Below, in pieces: positions 1 through 10,860 of a stretch of 13,662 nucleotides of DNA. Origin of the DNA: a virus (lineage: Duplodnaviria; Heunggongvirae; Uroviricota; Caudoviricetes). A program made the translations under genes and the position numbers. The notes below the pieces were generated by a model. That model did not search any database, was not told the DNA's origin, and saw only the letters and a program-made list of their open reading frames with translations. How positions within the stretch are numbered: position 1 is the first letter of the stretch; every line of letters begins with the position of its first letter. Where the stretch lies: the IMG/VR virus record IMGVR_UViG_2617271086_000006; one strand, written 5' to 3'.

Positions 1-319
1 TTGCCTCCCCCCCGTTGATGGGTAAAATAGCCGCAATTTTTCGTTTTCAACAAGCGCGGCGCGATGCCGCTTACTCAAGAAGAAAGAATTATGACGTTGT
101 CTCCTTATTTGCAAGAGGTGGCGAAGCGCCGCACTTTTGCCATTATTTCTCACCCCAATAATTAAGCCTAAATTAAAGCTCTTTTACTCTTTCAAAATCC
201 TTTCAGTTAATTGAGGTTGAGCAATATAACTCATTTAAATACATTTAGTTATGTGGCTTCTTTAATTGAAAATTCTTTCATGTAACTTTAAATCGATCTG
301 CTTGCTTTCATCAAAAATC

Positions 320-376
320 TGTACATATGCTTGTACATAATGTACAAAGCAGCAGAGGTGTTTTGCGATTTGTACA
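320..376. repeat. Cluster of four TGTACA hexamers upstream of int, including the perfect 15-bp palindrome TGTACATAATGTACA (332-346)
   Basis: Read directly: TGTACA at 320-325, 332-337, 341-346 and 371-376, ending 10 nt before the int start codon. Candidate protein-binding sites, function unknown. Confidence 0.35.
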
Positions 377-385
377 AGGTGAGTA

Positions 386-1609
386 ATGGCGCTGTCTGAT
401 GCGTGGTTGCGTTCAGTCGTTGGAAAGGAACGTGATAAGGTTTTGGTTAAATCCGATCGTGATGGTCTGTCTGTCAGAGTATCACCGAAAGGTCGCGTAG
501 TGTTCCAATATCGTTATCAATGGGCAGGGAAAGGTGAGCGTCTTGATATCGGAACTTACCCGGCAACTGGATTAAAAGAGGCCAGAGAAGAAGTTATCCG
601 TCTCCGTGGTGAACTCGAGTCAAACCGTAATCCACGATTGGTCAAGCAGGCTGAAAAACGAAAAGCTACTGAAGCCATGACGGTAGAGTCTGTGATCCGT
701 GCCTGGTATGAAGCATATTGTGTAAAAAATAAAAAAGGCTCTGAACAGATACTCCGCTCGTTTGAGCTGCACCTGTTCTCTAAAATCGGGAATATCCCTC
801 ACGATGCAGCTACATTGCATGATTGGTTAGAAGTCCTGGAGCCTCTTAGCACTAAGACTCCAGCAATAGCAGACCGATTGCTAATTAACGCAAAGCAGGC
901 CCATGTCTGGGCGTATAAGAGAAAGCTCATTGAAACTCGCCCGCTGTCGGATATCACGGGTAAAGATATGGATATCCGTAAAGGTCAGAAGAAACGGTTT
1001 CTGACACATGATGAAATTAAAATCCTTTATGCTGCGATCGATGGTTCTCGAATGGTTCCTAAATACCGGGCCTTCATTAAACTATTGCTGCATTTTGGCT
1101 GCCGTAGTTCAGAGCTAATTACCGCCAGGGTGGACGATTTTGATTTCATTAATAAAGTATGGACTGTACCACCAGAACGACATAAGACTGGGGAGATAAC
1201 GGGCGAACCGCTAAAACGGCCCATTATTGAACCGGTTGAAGAGCTTATAAAGTACGCTATTTCTATGAACAATGGTTCCGATATGCTTTTTACTAAGGAA
1301 GGAAGCAGGGAACCCGTTGGTCGGACATCATTGCAGTCGCTGCCTTACAATTTAATGCAGTATGCATGGCGGCGTTTGGGGTATCAATTCCCTCATTGGT
1401 CTCTGCATGATTTGAGGCGAACAGCACGAACAAACTTTTCTGATCTTACTGCGCCTCATATCGCAGAAATAATGCTCGGTCATAAACTGCCGGGGGTATG
1501 GCAAGTTTATGACAAGAGTGATTATTTAGAAGAACAGCGTAAAGCCTACCAGGCATGGTGGGAGAGAGTTGAATCGATTGTTACTTGTTCTGGTTCAGAC
1601 ACCAACTGA
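386..1609 (+). CDS. int: Tyrosine site-specific integrase (phage integrase family, P4-like)
   Basis: 407-aa ORF. Catalytic-domain signatures GCRSSEL (box I Arg), HDLRRTART (His-x-x-Arg) and a C-terminal Tyr region (VWQVYDKSDY). N-terminal region resembles the arm-binding domain. GGTGAG Shine-Dalgarno-like sequence 4-5 nt upstream of ATG 386. Confidence 0.9.
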   Translation: MALSDAWLRSVVGKERDKVLVKSDRDGLSVRVSPKGRVVFQYRYQWAGKGERLDIGTYPATGLKEAREEVIRLRGELESNRNPRLVKQAEKRKATEAMTVESVIRAWYEAYCVKNKKGSEQILRSFELHLFSKIGNIPHDAATLHDWLEVLEPLSTKTPAIADRLLINAKQAHVWAYKRKLIETRPLSDITGKDMDIRKGQKKRFLTHDEIKILYAAIDGSRMVPKYRAFIKLLLHFGCRSSELITARVDDFDFINKVWTVPPERHKTGEITGEPLKRPIIEPVEELIKYAISMNNGSDMLFTKEGSREPVGRTSLQSLPYNLMQYAWRRLGYQFPHWSLHDLRRTARTNFSDLTAPHIAEIMLGHKLPGVWQVYDKSDYLEEQRKAYQAWWERVESIVTCSGSDTN

Positions 1610-1781: not shown

Positions 1782-3035
1782 ATGAAAGTCGAAATGAATA
1801 CTAAACTTTTGGCCTATTTAAACAATGAGTTACATGGAGTGTGGATAGATAGTGAAAATCGTAATATCCACATAATACTTAAATCAAGCCTTCCTATAAT
1901 TAAATCCGTCTGGTCAGGAGCACCTATCCACTTTTTGGTAGGTTTATCTACTAAAAATATACTAGTGATTGGGATGTTGATTGAAGATAATGTCGATAAT
2001 CCATTTTTACTAGCCTATCCACCAAGAGAGGCAGATGAAATTAAAGGGCTGGATTTGTTATTGTCAGGCGCTTATGATGGTATTCTATTATCATTTTTTG
2101 ACTCGCATACAATGCGTGTTATGGACCTGAAAATAAAAGTTTCGGAAAATTTACCGTGTGAATGTTTAAAAAAATTTTGTGCTAATTCATATTCTCTCAA
2201 TTCAGGATTTAGGGAAGGTAATGAAGCAATGGATGAATTCTGCAACAATGCTTTGACTGGTAACGAGAAAATAATTAGTCTGCCACTAAGTGTAATCGAT
2301 AAAAAATCTTACCTAGCAAGTGTTCATGAACCAAACGATACCGTATTAACATATGAATTTAGCGTCAGTGAAAACGGCTCTGAGGGATATGAGCAGGAAG
2401 CTCTTATATACCATGCTTTGCGGCAGGTCTTTTCACCGGAGGAAGTGTTTTTTTCTCCAGATATTATTGAGGGTAATAAAAAAAGAGAACTAGTTGATAT
2501 TCTTATTGTAGAAAATGACTATGTATTATCTATACAGTCTAAAGCATCATCTTTGATTGAAATGGGTTTAAAATCTCATGAAAAGCTTTGTAGCATGTAT
2601 AAGAAAAAAGCATTGCAAGGGATCGATCAGGTTAAAGGCGTTATCCCAATTCTAAATAATGATGTGGTTATTAATTATGACGGGAGGGAATGCTTAATAA
2701 AGCGCAGAAAGGGTATTTATCATTTAGTGATAATCTCAGATCTTGTTTTAGAGAAAGAAGGTGCTGAAAAGATTTATAACGAAATTAGCAACCTTAAAGA
2801 GTCAAAAGGGGCGAAAGTTTTAGTTATGAGCCTTGAAGGTCTTGTAAATTTTATAAGACTATCAAGATTAAATAAAAGAATGTTTTGGGCAATGCTGGAG
2901 ACTAAATACAAGTTCAGCATAAAAAACCGTACAATTTTAATTAGAGATATCGACTCTAGCCAAGAGAATAATCTACCATTACTTGCCACTGATCAATACC
3001 TATCACTTCTTCGAGGTACGGGAAAATTAAAATAA
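1782..3035 (+). CDS. AT-rich cargo (moron) protein of unknown function with a putative PD-(D/E)xK nuclease-like core; candidate defence or abortive-infection protein
   Basis: 417-aa ORF, visibly AT-rich compared with the roughly 50% GC flanks. Residues about 201-254 show helix EGYEQEALIYHALRQ, then strand ELVDILIV (Asp), then strand YVLSIQSK (Q-x-K), i.e. a D-x12-QxK arrangement as in Mrr/NERD-type PD-(D/E)xK folds. Start may be ATG 1782 or the in-frame ATG 1794. No confident family assignment. Confidence 0.7.
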   Translation: MKVEMNTKLLAYLNNELHGVWIDSENRNIHIILKSSLPIIKSVWSGAPIHFLVGLSTKNILVIGMLIEDNVDNPFLLAYPPREADEIKGLDLLLSGAYDGILLSFFDSHTMRVMDLKIKVSENLPCECLKKFCANSYSLNSGFREGNEAMDEFCNNALTGNEKIISLPLSVIDKKSYLASVHEPNDTVLTYEFSVSENGSEGYEQEALIYHALRQVFSPEEVFFSPDIIEGNKKRELVDILIVENDYVLSIQSKASSLIEMGLKSHEKLCSMYKKKALQGIDQVKGVIPILNNDVVINYDGRECLIKRRKGIYHLVIISDLVLEKEGAEKIYNEISNLKESKGAKVLVMSLEGLVNFIRLSRLNKRMFWAMLETKYKFSIKNRTILIRDIDSSQENNLPLLATDQYLSLLRGTGKLK

Positions 3036-3220
3036 ATTGTATCAATGATACTGTTGCCACGTATCGAGACTGGCTTATGAACGGAAGGGTTTTCCAGCAG
3101 TTCAGCGACCGGAGCTGCACATCGATGCCGGATTGTGCCTGCAATTATGTACTTGGCTAAGAGGTGCTGCTGGCTCTGGATAGAATAACCCTAACGTCCA
3201 AAGAGCGCGCATTTTCATGT

Positions 3221-3320: not shown

Positions 3321-3515
3321 TTACTCAATTACTCCTGCAAACCTGTATATCTTACGTGATGCCCATTTATTTGGGCAGGATTTAATATCAGGATCTGGAA
3401 AATCAGGCCGATATTTCTGACCAGTCCTCCGGTTTACACTGTTCCAGCGAAGCACCGTCGATATTGAAACGCCACAGAATTCGGCGACTTGTTTTGTTGT
3501 CATTAAGTTGTTCAT
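3321..3515 (-). CDS. AlpA/excisionase-like small HTH DNA-binding protein (putative Xis/regulator)
   Basis: Trimmed to the internal Met (MNNLMTTKQVAEFCGVSISTVLRW...), giving 64 aa. Its start codon overlaps the upstream gene's stop as ATGA (3512-3515). HTH-like segment followed by an FPDP motif, as in AlpA/HTH_17 proteins. Last gene of the leftward operon, the usual xis position. Confidence 0.55.
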   Translation of the reverse strand: MNNLMTTKQVAEFCGVSISTVLRWNSVNRRTGQKYRPDFPDPDIKSCPNKWASRKIYRFAGVIE

Positions 3516-6779: not shown

Positions 6780-6825
6780 AAAAAGAGCGGTACCAGCCGG
6801 AAGCAAGTGTACAAACTGGTACCGC
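6780..6825 (-). terminator. Stem-loop plus U-tract in the PL leader (tL-like terminator candidate)
   Basis: Perfect 10-bp inverted repeat GCGGTACCAG (6787-6796) / CTGGTACCGC (6816-6825) with a 19-nt loop containing TGTACA. On the minus strand it is followed by UCUUUUUACAAAAC, which also resembles a boxA motif (CGCTCTTTTTA). Confidence 0.4.
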
Positions 6826-7320
6826 CAAAGCAGTGGCTGTTGTGGTGACCGGTGCTGATCTCCGGCTTGCGGTTATTTCAGACTCTCACGGGCGTTTAAT
6901 TGCCCCGCCGAACAGCTCTTTTCCGCAATAGCTGCAATGTCTTTCGCGCATCAGCCTGCGCATTCACCACAACGCTGAGAGCATTGCCGGTGTCCGAATC
7001 GAACGGACCTTTTCCCTGCCCAACCCTCCCATCTGAATGGGACTGTCTGGAATTGAACCAGCACTTATGCCTTGCTCGTCAATGCTCTCATCGTTGCGTC
7101 CTGGTCTCTTCCCAAGCGTCAAACCGAATCGCCACGCTGGTTAGGCGTCTTATCAGCATCCTCATTGACTTGCACATTCCGGCTACCTGGTTTGTTTGCC
7201 CGAGCAAGGAGTGGATTATCCCCTTTAACGTCCCCAGACCGCTAACGACGCATGTGCCATACGCCGTGTTACAACCAAATTTTGTTTGAATCTTGCCTGC
7301 CTCATGTTTCTTTTGGATAC

Positions 7321-7348
7321 ATTATGTATCTCATAGGTACATTGTCAA
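7321..7348 (-). promoter_or_regulatory. Putative PL promoter with embedded operator OL
   Basis: Minus-strand -35 TTGACA (plus 7343-7348), 16-nt spacer, -10 CATAAT (plus 7321-7326). The spacer and -10 are overlapped by an operator-like site TGTATC-N5-GGTACA (7325-7341). Confidence 0.5.
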
Positions 7349-7387: not shown

Positions 7388-8062
7388 TTAGGCCTTTATT
7401 GTGTATCTTCTTGGTTTTCCCGAGAAAATCACTGTACCAATTATAGAGCAATTACCGTTAATCTTAATGTAAGGCTCAGGCCAGTTTGGGTTTAATGCTT
7501 TGAGATAACGCTGTGTTCCATCTTCTATCAACCGCTTGAAGGTGGTTTCGCCTGAATCGTGCATCAATGCAATAACGTCGTCACCGTGGCAGGCAGGGAC
7601 TTCAGGATCAACAAAAATCATGTCTCCCGGGCGGTACTCATCAATCATTGAATCACCAATCACCCGCAAGATATAAGTCATTTCGCCACAGGGTACAGGG
7701 CAGGGATAAGTTTCTGCTGTGCTCAAATCAACCTCAGAATAGCCAACTTCTTTCCATGCTCCGGCCTGTACCCATGATATGACAGGGACTAACGTTATTT
7801 GTTTGTTAGTGATTGAAACATCAGGTTTTTTTGTGATGTTCGTGGTCTGGTGTTCTTGATCAAGCCATCCGACAGGCAGGTCGAAACATTTTTCGATGTG
7901 CCTTGCCATGCTGTCACCGATATTTTTAGTAGCACCATCTCCCATAAACCTGCTGGTCTGGGTTGGCTCGCGATCAATCATGGTGGCAAAGGAAGAATTC
8001 CCGCCAACACCATCTCTCAGTTTTCTGGCGTTAGACCGCCGGATGTCATGGACTGTTTTCAT
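7388..8062 (-). CDS. cI: CI-type prophage repressor (N-terminal HTH, C-terminal S24 LexA-like autopeptidase)
   Basis: 224-aa ORF. Ala-Gly autocleavage site (VQAGAW), Ser nucleophile motif GDSM and Lys in TFKRL. Divergent from the cro-like gene. No Shine-Dalgarno sequence close to the ATG, so the mRNA may be leaderless as for lambda PRM. Confidence 0.9.
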   Translation of the reverse strand: MKTVHDIRRSNARKLRDGVGGNSSFATMIDREPTQTSRFMGDGATKNIGDSMARHIEKCFDLPVGWLDQEHQTTNITKKPDVSITNKQITLVPVISWVQAGAWKEVGYSEVDLSTAETYPCPVPCGEMTYILRVIGDSMIDEYRPGDMIFVDPEVPACHGDDVIALMHDSGETTFKRLIEDGTQRYLKALNPNWPEPYIKINGNCSIIGTVIFSGKPRRYTIKA

Positions 8063-8078
8063 AACGAAATTAAAACCT

Positions 8079-8097
8079 TTGTACCGATAGGGTACAA
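8079..8097. promoter_or_regulatory. Operator-like palindrome OR-a (TTGTACC-gatag-GGTACAA)
   Basis: Perfect 7-bp inverted repeat with 5-bp spacer, 17 nt upstream of the cI start, in the cI/cro intergenic region. Confidence 0.5.
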
Positions 8098-8102
8098 GTA
8101 TC

Positions 8103-8130
8103 TTGAAGGTTCATCTCAATCATGTAATAT
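8103..8130 (+). promoter_or_regulatory. Putative PR promoter for the cro-like operon
   Basis: -35 TTGAAG (8103-8108), 16-nt spacer, -10 TAATAT (8125-8130), followed by a second operator-like site TGTATA-tcgga-GGTACA (8130-8146) over the predicted transcription start. Confidence 0.5.
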
Positions 8131-8146
8131 GTATATCGGAGGTACA
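8130..8146. promoter_or_regulatory. Operator-like site OR-b (TGTATA-N5-GGTACA)
   Basis: Same half-site pattern as OR-a and OL, lying between the PR -10 and the cro Shine-Dalgarno sequence. Confidence 0.45.
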
Positions 8147-9816: not shown

Positions 9817-10045
9817 TCCGTTGCTCCTCAACATTTACCGTTTATTTCAGCGTAAAAAAATATCAACACCCACAGTTGGGCAGTGGTACACCACGCCAGC
9901 AGGGCATGTTCTACGTGTCAGCCTGGTTGACCGTGAATGTCAGAAGGTGATTTGTGAACCGCTGGGCCGTAATTACCGCGTCAGTATGCCGCTTATAGCC
10001 TTTCGCTCCGGAAAAAACATGAAGCATCTCGGAGGTGCAGCATGA
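9809..10045 (+). CDS. Hypothetical small protein (78 aa)
   Basis: ATG 9809 preceded by GGAGGG at 7 nt. ATGA overlap with the downstream initiator gene (10042-10045). Confidence 0.6.
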   Translation: MLNPLLLNIYRLFQRKKISTPTVGQWYTTPAGHVLRVSLVDRECQKVICEPLGRNYRVSMPLIAFRSGKNMKHLGGAA

Positions 10046-10860
10046 GTATGGAGCTGATGGTTAAAGCGATGAAAATTCGAGTGGGTAATCCATTGCGAAA
10101 ACTGGTTCTGATCAAGCTGGCTGATAATGCCAGCGATCAGGGTGAGTGCTGGCCCAGCTACCAGCATATTGCTGACCAGTGCGAGATTAGCAAACGTTCT
10201 GTGATGAATCATATTGCGGCCCTTTGTGAGTCCGGGCTGGTAAAAAAAGTCACCCGGAAAGGTGAAAAAGGTAACTCAAGTAATATCTATCTCCTTCATC
10301 TGGATGGTGCAGGAGATTCACTAGGGGGTAGTGCAAATAATTCACTATCTGGTGCAGCAAATTCACCAGGTAGTGCAGGAGTTGCACTAGGGGGTAGTGC
10401 AGGAGATTCACCCAGAACCAGTCACTCTTTTGAACCAGTCAAAGAACCAGTCAATGAACCAATAGCTGTTGGTGCATCTGCTGATGAGTCTGTGCGAGTT
10501 CGTTCAAACCGACCGGAATACTCTCCGGAGTTTGAGCAGGCATGGCTGGCATATCCCAAACGTGCTGGTGGCAATTCAAAATCTGCAGCCTTCAAAGCCT
10601 GGAAAGCCCGTTTGAATGAGGGGGTAAACCCCGAAACCATGCTGGAAGGTGTGAAACGCTATGCGGGCTGGGTATCTGCGATGGGTAACAGCGGCACACA
10701 ATTTGTGAAACAGGCTGTCACGTTCTTTGGTCCGGATCGTCATTTCGAAGAATCCTGGGAAGTTCCTGCGGTATCTGCAGCCAGACGTGAGGACCCGTAC
10801 TTCAAAGCCAGTTACGACAACGTGGACTACAGCCAGATCCCGGCAGGATTCAGGGGGTGA
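10042..10860 (+). CDS. Replication initiator, O-like (N-terminal winged-helix DNA-binding domain, iteron-encoded linker, C-terminal domain)
   Basis: 272-aa ORF with GGAGG 6 nt upstream. N-terminal HTH_36-like winged helix (LRKLVLIKLADNASDQGECWPSYQHIADQCEISKRSVMNHIAALCESGLVKK). The central Gly/Ser/Ala-rich linker is encoded by tandem DNA repeats, as for ori-lambda inside gene O. Confidence 0.8.
   Translation: MSMELMVKAMKIRVGNPLRKLVLIKLADNASDQGECWPSYQHIADQCEISKRSVMNHIAALCESGLVKKVTRKGEKGNSSNIYLLHLDGAGDSLGGSANNSLSGAANSPGSAGVALGGSAGDSPRTSHSFEPVKEPVNEPIAVGASADESVRVRSNRPEYSPEFEQAWLAYPKRAGGNSKSAAFKAWKARLNEGVNPETMLEGVKRYAGWVSAMGNSGTQFVKQAVTFFGPDRHFEESWEVPAVSAARREDPYFKASYDNVDYSQIPAGFRG
10303..10413. 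repeat. Iteron array (putative origin of replication) inside the O-like gene
   Basis: Four direct repeats of about 19 bp with consensus TTCAC-N8/9-GTGCA: 10317-10335, 10341-10359, 10362-10380 and 10383-10401, at a period of 21-24 bp. Confidence 0.6.
10415..10461. repeat. Tandem GAACCAGTCA decamer repeats next to the iterons
   Basis: GAACCAGTCA at 10415-10424, 10432-10441 and 10444-10453, plus a partial GAACCAA at 10456-10461. They encode EPVKEPVNEP in the initiator linker. Confidence 0.5.

Follow-up and report, generated by a model that had tools for sequence, protein, structure and literature searches.

The attP site of phage lambda carries short arm-type repeats (P1, P2 and P'1-P'3) on both arms, unlike the core in sequence; neighbouring copies lie about one helical turn apart and in mixed orientations, the integrase has a dedicated N-terminal arm-binding domain, and the recombination directionality factor (RDF) has a gene of its own. 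Within the KplE1 (CPS-53) prophage, intS lies by attL and is transcribed away from it, arm sites are situated between the core and the start of the gene, and these attL arm sites overlap PintS and give autorepression by IntS (PMC2951348). The integrases of phage cdtI and SXT have been placed together in the cluster of the IntSXT subgroup that targets prfC; in this subgroup the DUF4102 domain serves to bind the arms (PMC8138268). SXT/R391 is the best-studied integrase system acting on prfC. In SXT, xis and int are convergent, and int belongs to the s003 operon, which is transcribed under the control of SetCD (PMC4344509); because of this location, the 5' end of SXT int apparently does not face attP.

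We examined a cluster of TGTACA hexamers lying directly upstream of int in a prophage that targets prfC, within a window of 13,662 nt (the whole stretch of DNA that was analysed). The hexamers are likely to be arm-type sites for Int in the P' arm of the attachment site, used in insertion and excision at prfC and probably also in the autorepression of int, as judged from comparison of sequences. The lambda features listed above are all matched at this locus. It differs from lambda in that the repeat is (T)TGTACA(T), present in eight copies over a wider attP (about -183 to +234), in that the arm-binding domain is of the DUF4102/Arm-DNA-bind_3 type, in that int stands outside the PL operon, at the outer edge of the P' arm and convergent with xis, and in that no match to the IHF consensus was seen. 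The arrangement of int, arm sites and attL resembles that of KplE1, and negative autoregulation by Int would be the expected consequence of arm sites upstream of int; the target differs (the 5' coding end of prfC here, the tRNA gene argW in KplE1), as do the arm motif and the place of xis, which is at the end of the PL operon here and at the far prophage end in KplE1. With the integrases of SXT/R391 and phage cdtI the locus shares the target, the prfC 5' end, and the DUF4102 arm-binding domain; with SXT, the convergence of xis and int; and with phage cdtI, the very same attP, the P' arm being 91% identical. The arrangement of the SXT type, with the prfC fragment downstream of int, was found in none of the fetched loci. 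Arm-type sites and int autoregulation are textbook kinds of element; no published arm-site map for prfC-targeting integrases was found in a literature search of incomplete coverage, and as far as found such a map is apparently new.

The left attachment site in prfC and its TGTACA cluster

Over its first 1700 positions the window matched E. coli IAI39, as well as other strains, at 100% identity. The prfC reading frame occupies 91-155 with the 5' end of the gene; the insertion cuts the gene and a phage-borne stop codon closes the fragment at 165 (Table 1). Records of Stx phages annotate ATTATTTCTCACCC as a 14-bp "duplication due to insertion", and because this annotated duplication falls at 142-155, the window begins at the attL of a lambdoid prophage that has entered the prfC gene of E. 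coli, and the P' arm spans 156-385. The second copy of the core is found at attR of IAI39 (locus L003, 3422-3435), and three free phage genomes, those of Ayreon, 2H10 and cdtI, have the P' arm contiguous with core and P arm. The int gene, on the same strand, begins where the P' arm ends and is read in the direction away from the core; core and int were separated by 199-237 bp in 25 relatives.

Table 1. Features of the attachment site and related elements (window positions unless a locus is named)
Feature	Position	Strand	Remarks
Host prfC 5' fragment	91-165	+	100% match to E. coli IAI39 upstream of prophage
att core ATTATTTCTCACCC, 14 bp	142-155		duplicated at attL and attR
P' arm of attP	156-385		phage DNA between core and int start
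CTTTCA direct repeats, two copies	189, 200 (189-205)	+	11-bp spacing; candidate for accessory protein (Xis/RDF or bending)
CTTTCA direct repeats, two more	275, 305 (275-310)	+	candidate accessory sites
P'a (cTGTACATa)	320-325	+	first member of direct pair, 12-bp spacing
P'b (tTGTACATa)	332-337	+	second pair member; pair module nearly identical to attR P-arm pair
P'c	341-346	-	minus strand reads tTGTACATt; inverted vs P'b, creating palindrome 331-347
P'd (TTGTACAA, symmetric)	371-376		adjoins Shine-Dalgarno GGTGAG (378-383)
int, 407-aa tyrosine integrase	386-1609	+	N-terminal arm-DNA-binding domain aa 3-90
xis, 64-aa HTH protein, recombination directionality factor	3321-3515	-	convergent with int
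TGTAY-N7-GTACA dyads	7325-7341, 8080-8096, 8130-8146		flank cI-like gene (7388-8062, minus strand)
lepA-fragment loci	L041, L042, L044, L045, L046, L049, L064, L055: about 210 bp upstream of int; L006: about 2270-2320

The earlier note on this DNA had described four TGTACA hexamers within 57 bp upstream of int, two of them forming a perfect palindrome, and both observations held. The four copies start at 320, 332, 341 and 371, the last ending 9 nt before the int ATG, and the count over the whole window added a lone copy at 6808-6813. The palindrome TGTACATAATGTACA at 332-346 has 7-1-7 symmetry; with one more base on either side it becomes a perfect 8-1-8 inverted repeat, TTGTACAT-A-ATGTACAA, at 331-347 (17 bp). 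Copy P'c is confined to the closest relatives (E. coli and Pantoea), outside of which the 15-bp palindrome is not conserved; the palindrome is a by-product of one additional inverted hexamer copy. Comparison with shuffled sequence, as the note had suggested, gave two answers. The window-wide count was not enriched, 5 copies being observed vs 2.7 expected, with at least 5 in 31 of 200 shuffles; the clustering was far beyond chance, since 4 copies in 57 bp arose in 0 of 5000 dinucleotide shuffles of the window (the best had 3, once), and at least 3 copies in 0 of 20000 dinucleotide shuffles of the AT-rich 230-bp P' arm alone. The RNA of the int leader (156-400) folded no better than shuffles (z=-0.94), and an RNA element as explanation of the cluster is unsupported.

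Only two hexamers, TGTACA and CTTTCA, reach at least four copies in the P' arm, and two such hexamers occurred in 1 of 5000 shuffles. All four CTTTCA copies read on the plus strand and are confined to the part of the P' arm that separates the core from the TGTACA cluster; the P arm has none. Their conservation is imperfect (positions 189, 190 and 205 vary). A CTTTMA-like repeat was visible in the Pantoea relative L013. The IHF consensus WATCAANNNNTTR gave no match, even when one mismatch was allowed.

Repeats on both arms of attP and the protein that may bind them

The attR of IAI39 carries four further TGTACA copies just upstream of the core (L003 3239, 3308, 3336 and 3348), and 0 of 3000 shuffles of this locus exceeded 2 copies per 120 bp. 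In the intact attP of Ayreon, 2H10 and cdtI the eight hexamers are at -183, -114, -86, -74 and at +178, +190, +199, +229, counted from the first core base. The P-arm pair tTGTACATATGaTTGTACATAAT almost copies the P' pair cTGTACATATGcTTGTACATAAT, and the P arm carries the module TGTACATATGnTTGTACATAAT, almost identical to its P' counterpart. When oriented by the extended motif TTGTACAT, the two pairs are both direct and point the same way, the three copies at -183, -114 and window position 341 are inverted, and that at 371 is symmetric. The repeats thus flank the core on both sides, as arm-type sites do, and ATTATTTCTCACCC is unrelated to them in sequence.

The cognate integrase possesses an N-terminal arm-DNA-binding domain, as the arm-site reading would expect. 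Its Pfam matches are PF13356 Arm-DNA-bind_3 (aa 3-90, E=1.9e-16), PF22022 Phage_int_M and PF00589 Phage_integrase, and its N-terminus also matches PDB 3JTZ/3RMP, an 88-residue chain deposited as "Integrase | CP4-like integrase" (E=1.5e-6). Int is most likely the protein that binds the hexamers, to judge from the sequences. Its N-terminal domain would bind the eight (T)TGTACA(T) repeats, of which each arm has four, while its C-terminal domains would bind and cut the core; the bridging of arm and core by Int would then build the intasome for integration into prfC and, together with Xis, for excision.

The earlier note had also offered a site for the prophage repressor, and it is true that the word recurs where it said. 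The window has exactly three dyads of the form TGTAY-N7-GTACA (with at most one mismatch). They start at 7325, 8080 and 8130, flank cI and are built from the half-site TGTAC/GTACA; they are likely the operators of an immunity region of the SfV type, and the 15-bp palindrome resembles GATACATTATGTATC near PL. On this basis the cluster could be an operator through which the CI-like repressor silences int in the lysogen. The spacing speaks against it: the cluster contains N5 and N8 only, and the N7 of the CI dyads is absent. Module exchange between phages speaks against it as well. The immunity region of the window (cI, cro and operators) is 96% identical to that of phage SfV, yet SfV has another integrase and no TGTACA cluster anywhere, only three isolated TGTACA in 37 kb. 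Conversely, an Stx1a phage has nothing in common with the window beyond int/attL (95.7%) and xis (86%); its immunity region is unrelated and non-homologous, and it keeps all four hexamers. The repeats therefore follow the integrase independently of other phage modules, as arm-type sites would, and neither the half-site spacing nor the co-occurrence with the cognate repressor gene is that of a CI operator. Conservation of the repeats by int in elements of many orders of Proteobacteria (see below) is a further point against the repressor. These dissociations already largely refute control of int by the repressor through the cluster, which we now consider most improbable; the half-site common to cluster and dyads is a resemblance of words, not of sites.

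The lone TGTACA at 6808-6813, also pointed out in the note, is in the loop of a hairpin at 6783-6826 (minus strand) with a 12-bp GC-rich stem, GCGGUACCAGCC/GGCUGGUACCGC, followed by UCUUUUU. This hairpin is terminator-like (z=-2.55) and lies in the long untranslated leader of the leftward operon; a single copy in its loop is within background expectation. Elsewhere in the window, repeats of the type GAACCAGTCA were seen at 10415-10461, three as exact 10-mers plus a fourth reduced to GAACCA, 12-17 bp apart. They lie inside the ORF 10042-10860, annotated as a replication protein in SfV, and are probably origin iterons.

The other protein that the earlier note had named is of the AlpA/Xis type, here the RDF gene at 3321-3515 (minus strand); its product could bind the hexamers, bend the arms in excision and possibly repress int. 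The gene gave only weak Pfam matches below the cut-off (HTH_17/MerR), and its counterpart in phage 2H10 is annotated as an excisionase. It stands well with respect to inheritance: xis is the only segment other than int/attL common to the window and the Stx1a phage (86% identity), and in Pantoea and Serratia relatives it comes directly after int and convergent with it. Linkage alone cannot separate Int from Xis, because xis is co-inherited with int in close relatives. The layout of the hexamers is harder to reconcile with an RDF. For RDFs such as lambda Xis and TorI, the sites normally form a short same-orientation array that keeps to one arm and lies between the core and the arm-type sites, and the TGTACA copies number eight, occupy both arms in both orientations, and reach up to 230 bp from the core, the outermost positions included. 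A separate one-strand repeat, CTTTCA in four copies, fits such an array better and is a better candidate for the sites of an RDF or bending protein, as far as its pattern in the sequence can suggest. The motif GTACA was moreover found in about 48 loci, whereas a Xis homolog by int was found in four group-A loci outside the E. coli-type prophages and in the distant locus L074; this evidence is weak, since flanks of only 1.5 kb were covered and small proteins diverge fast. In favour of an RDF, proteins of the TorI type bind attL and repress int in KplE1 (PMC2951348). Taken together, the travelling of xis with int keeps part of the suggestion alive, and the eight mixed-orientation sites on both arms make it unlikely.

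Between the convergent int and xis, int being outside the leftward early operon, is an ORF of 417 aa (1782-3035, plus strand) with no Pfam or PADLOC match. Ayreon and 2H10 have other genes at this slot. Because xis abuts int directly in the Pantoea and Serratia relatives, the site looks like a variable cargo slot. At the right end of the IAI39 prophage (L003 791-2690), genes for a reverse transcriptase and for a SLATT-domain protein, which may form a defence pair, were observed, and a frameshifted dinI-like gene follows a LexA-box-like CTGTGTTTGTATACAG (L003 about 3165-3185).

Conservation of the motif within and beyond E. coli

Polymorphism of the P' arm was assessed among 29 distinct haplotypes from prophages and phages. 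A scan of viral contigs for diverged attP of free phages returned only near-identical E. coli prophages, and these served for the polymorphism test. Variation was seen at 56 of 230 positions, with 0 variable positions within the 24 hexamer bases vs 5.8 expected (P=8e-4), which is the purifying selection, relative to the surrounding arm, that would be expected of arm-type sites. The substitutions inside 320-376 (at 327, 330, 349, 360 and 365-367) were all between hexamers. In alignments of both arms, all eight attP hexamers were invariant, those of the P arm included.

Among the matches listed in a protein search, Int homologs ranged from 98% down to about 50% identity. A genome scan gave a family set of 80 loci, and the 48 with Int 40-99% identical were used for counts; these come from Enterobacterales, Pseudomonas, Acinetobacter, Shewanella, Methylomonas, Burkholderiaceae and others. 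The density of GTAC was 26.7/kb in the last 100 bp before int, compared with 1.8/kb further upstream and 2.3/kb inside int. All loci but one (47/48) had at least two GTAC copies in those 100 bp, and in 40/48 the first two copies were exactly 12 bp apart. The family consensus is AAATrTGTACAT-N4-gTGTACATAA with a further copy 10-29 nt before the ATG. This start-proximal copy, the counterpart of P'd, is kept in most of the integrase family and forms the peak of the position histogram at -10 to -29. In relatives with Int only 30-33% identical (L066-L090), GTAC was at 13/kb in the last 100 bp before int vs 2/kb; because of this enrichment the arm-site word may predate the clade that targets prfC and lepA.

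In one clade the motif has changed in concert. Seven loci (Klebsiella, Enterobacter, Kluyvera, Phytobacter and Edwardsiella) and the Klebsiella phage Kpn_R1 have GTCC/GGAC in place of GTAC at the same positions in all copies, the clade density being 41/kb before int vs 3.5/kb. In Kpn_R1 a GTGTCCAccgatGTGTCCAT pair is also present beyond the core, in the P arm. The arm domain of this clade bears substitutions at residues that are near-invariant elsewhere (W7Y, S29W, K37A, Q41F, R52K and D54T). The domain changes together with the switch of motif would point to co-evolution of Int with its sites; the switch from GTACA to GTCCA is suggestive only, because it is a single evolutionary event.

The same comparisons bear on whether a host regulator binds the repeats, or whether these are bare promoter elements. 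The TyrR-box consensus is TGTAAA-N6-TTTACA, and TGTACA-N6-TGTACA fits it at 10 of 12 positions as a sequence; each pair also lies a short way before a gene start, that of int or, at attR, that of the phage-borne prfC 5' end. The motif nevertheless follows the integrase through Burkholderiaceae, Acinetobacter and Xenorhabdus, and in one integrase clade its copies have switched together to GTCCA. Such boxes are formed neither by the inverted copy nor by the distal copies of the P arm, and the spacing of the hexamers makes no sigma-70 -35/-10 pair. There is, in our judgement, very little chance that either explanation accounts for the cluster. The assignment of the hexamers as arm-type sites of Int, by comparison, is well supported by the copies on the other arm, the arm-binding domain of Int, the inheritance of the repeats with int and their conservation across the family.

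The target also varies within the family. A 5' fragment of lepA, MKNIRNFSIIAHID, adjoins related integrases of 40-47% identity (loci in Table 1), and it is cut at codons homologous to the prfC core. The targets are thus paralogous genes of translational GTPases, entered at the same G1-proximal codons. Because the Acinetobacter locus L055 has lepA as its target yet keeps the GTACA arm sites, core target and arm motif vary independently.

Possible control of int and of prfC at the junctions

The four repeats fill the 66 bp that precede the int start codon, and the ribosome-binding site directly adjoins the last of them, so that Int bound there probably lowers int expression. As in the KplE1 type of arrangement, int is transcribed away from attL and its upstream region overlaps the arm sites. 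By analogy with that system, int is probably autoregulated, such that arm-bound Int would lower expression of its own gene.

The promoter that would be subject to this control was sought by simple scan. No sigma-70 promoter was found on the plus strand of the P' arm (156-385) or of the P arm. A promoter built from the pair, with the first hexamer as -35 and TAnnnT 17 nt later, was tried and rejected, as it was present in 15 of 41 modules, mostly from one Xenorhabdus/Photorhabdus clade. The host prfC promoter is at 1-28, and the scan showed no terminator between it and int. Because no promoter was found in the P' arm, int is possibly read from the upstream prfC promoter: in the lysogen it may be transcribed from the prfC promoter, and after excision from the prfC' promoter that the phage carries. 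Promoter switching that depends on state has been reported for ICEKp1 (PMC13023037), and the switch supposed here would resemble it.

At attR, a promoter region and first codons of phage origin stand in for those of prfC (L003 3336-3434; likewise L004 and L005 2171-2270), and the P-arm TGTACA pair is 26-38 nt upstream of the surrogate prfC ATG. Because the pair adjoins this ATG, Int binding at attR could influence expression of prfC (RF3) in lysogens. A wider reading is that the GTACA code and its fixed geometry (a 12-bp pair plus the start-proximal copy) are common to a deep clade of integrases that enter the 5' coding ends of prfC and lepA at homologous codons, the element replacing the promoter and first codons of the host gene so that one arm-site pair would stand in the surrogate leader and the other set in the int leader; occupancy by Int would then couple the state of recombination to expression of int and of a host translation factor. 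We hold this to be rather unlikely. If true, the arm sites would have a regulatory role beyond intasome assembly.

The attP map, comprising the core, eight putative arm sites and candidate accessory sites, applies to the prfC integrases of Stx1a, Stx2c and CDT-I converting phages. Of 5426 complete E. coli genomes, 699 (about 13%) matched the int-containing query over most of its length. For annotation, the locus advises caution: palindromic repeats next to int that resemble a repressor half-site are here likely to be recombination sites, not operators. The motif AAATrTGTACAT-N4-gTGTACATAA, with its natural specificity variant GTCCA, is a possible guide for engineering or annotation, and this family-wide motif, along with the targeting of prfC and lepA, may be the most useful by-product of the analysis.
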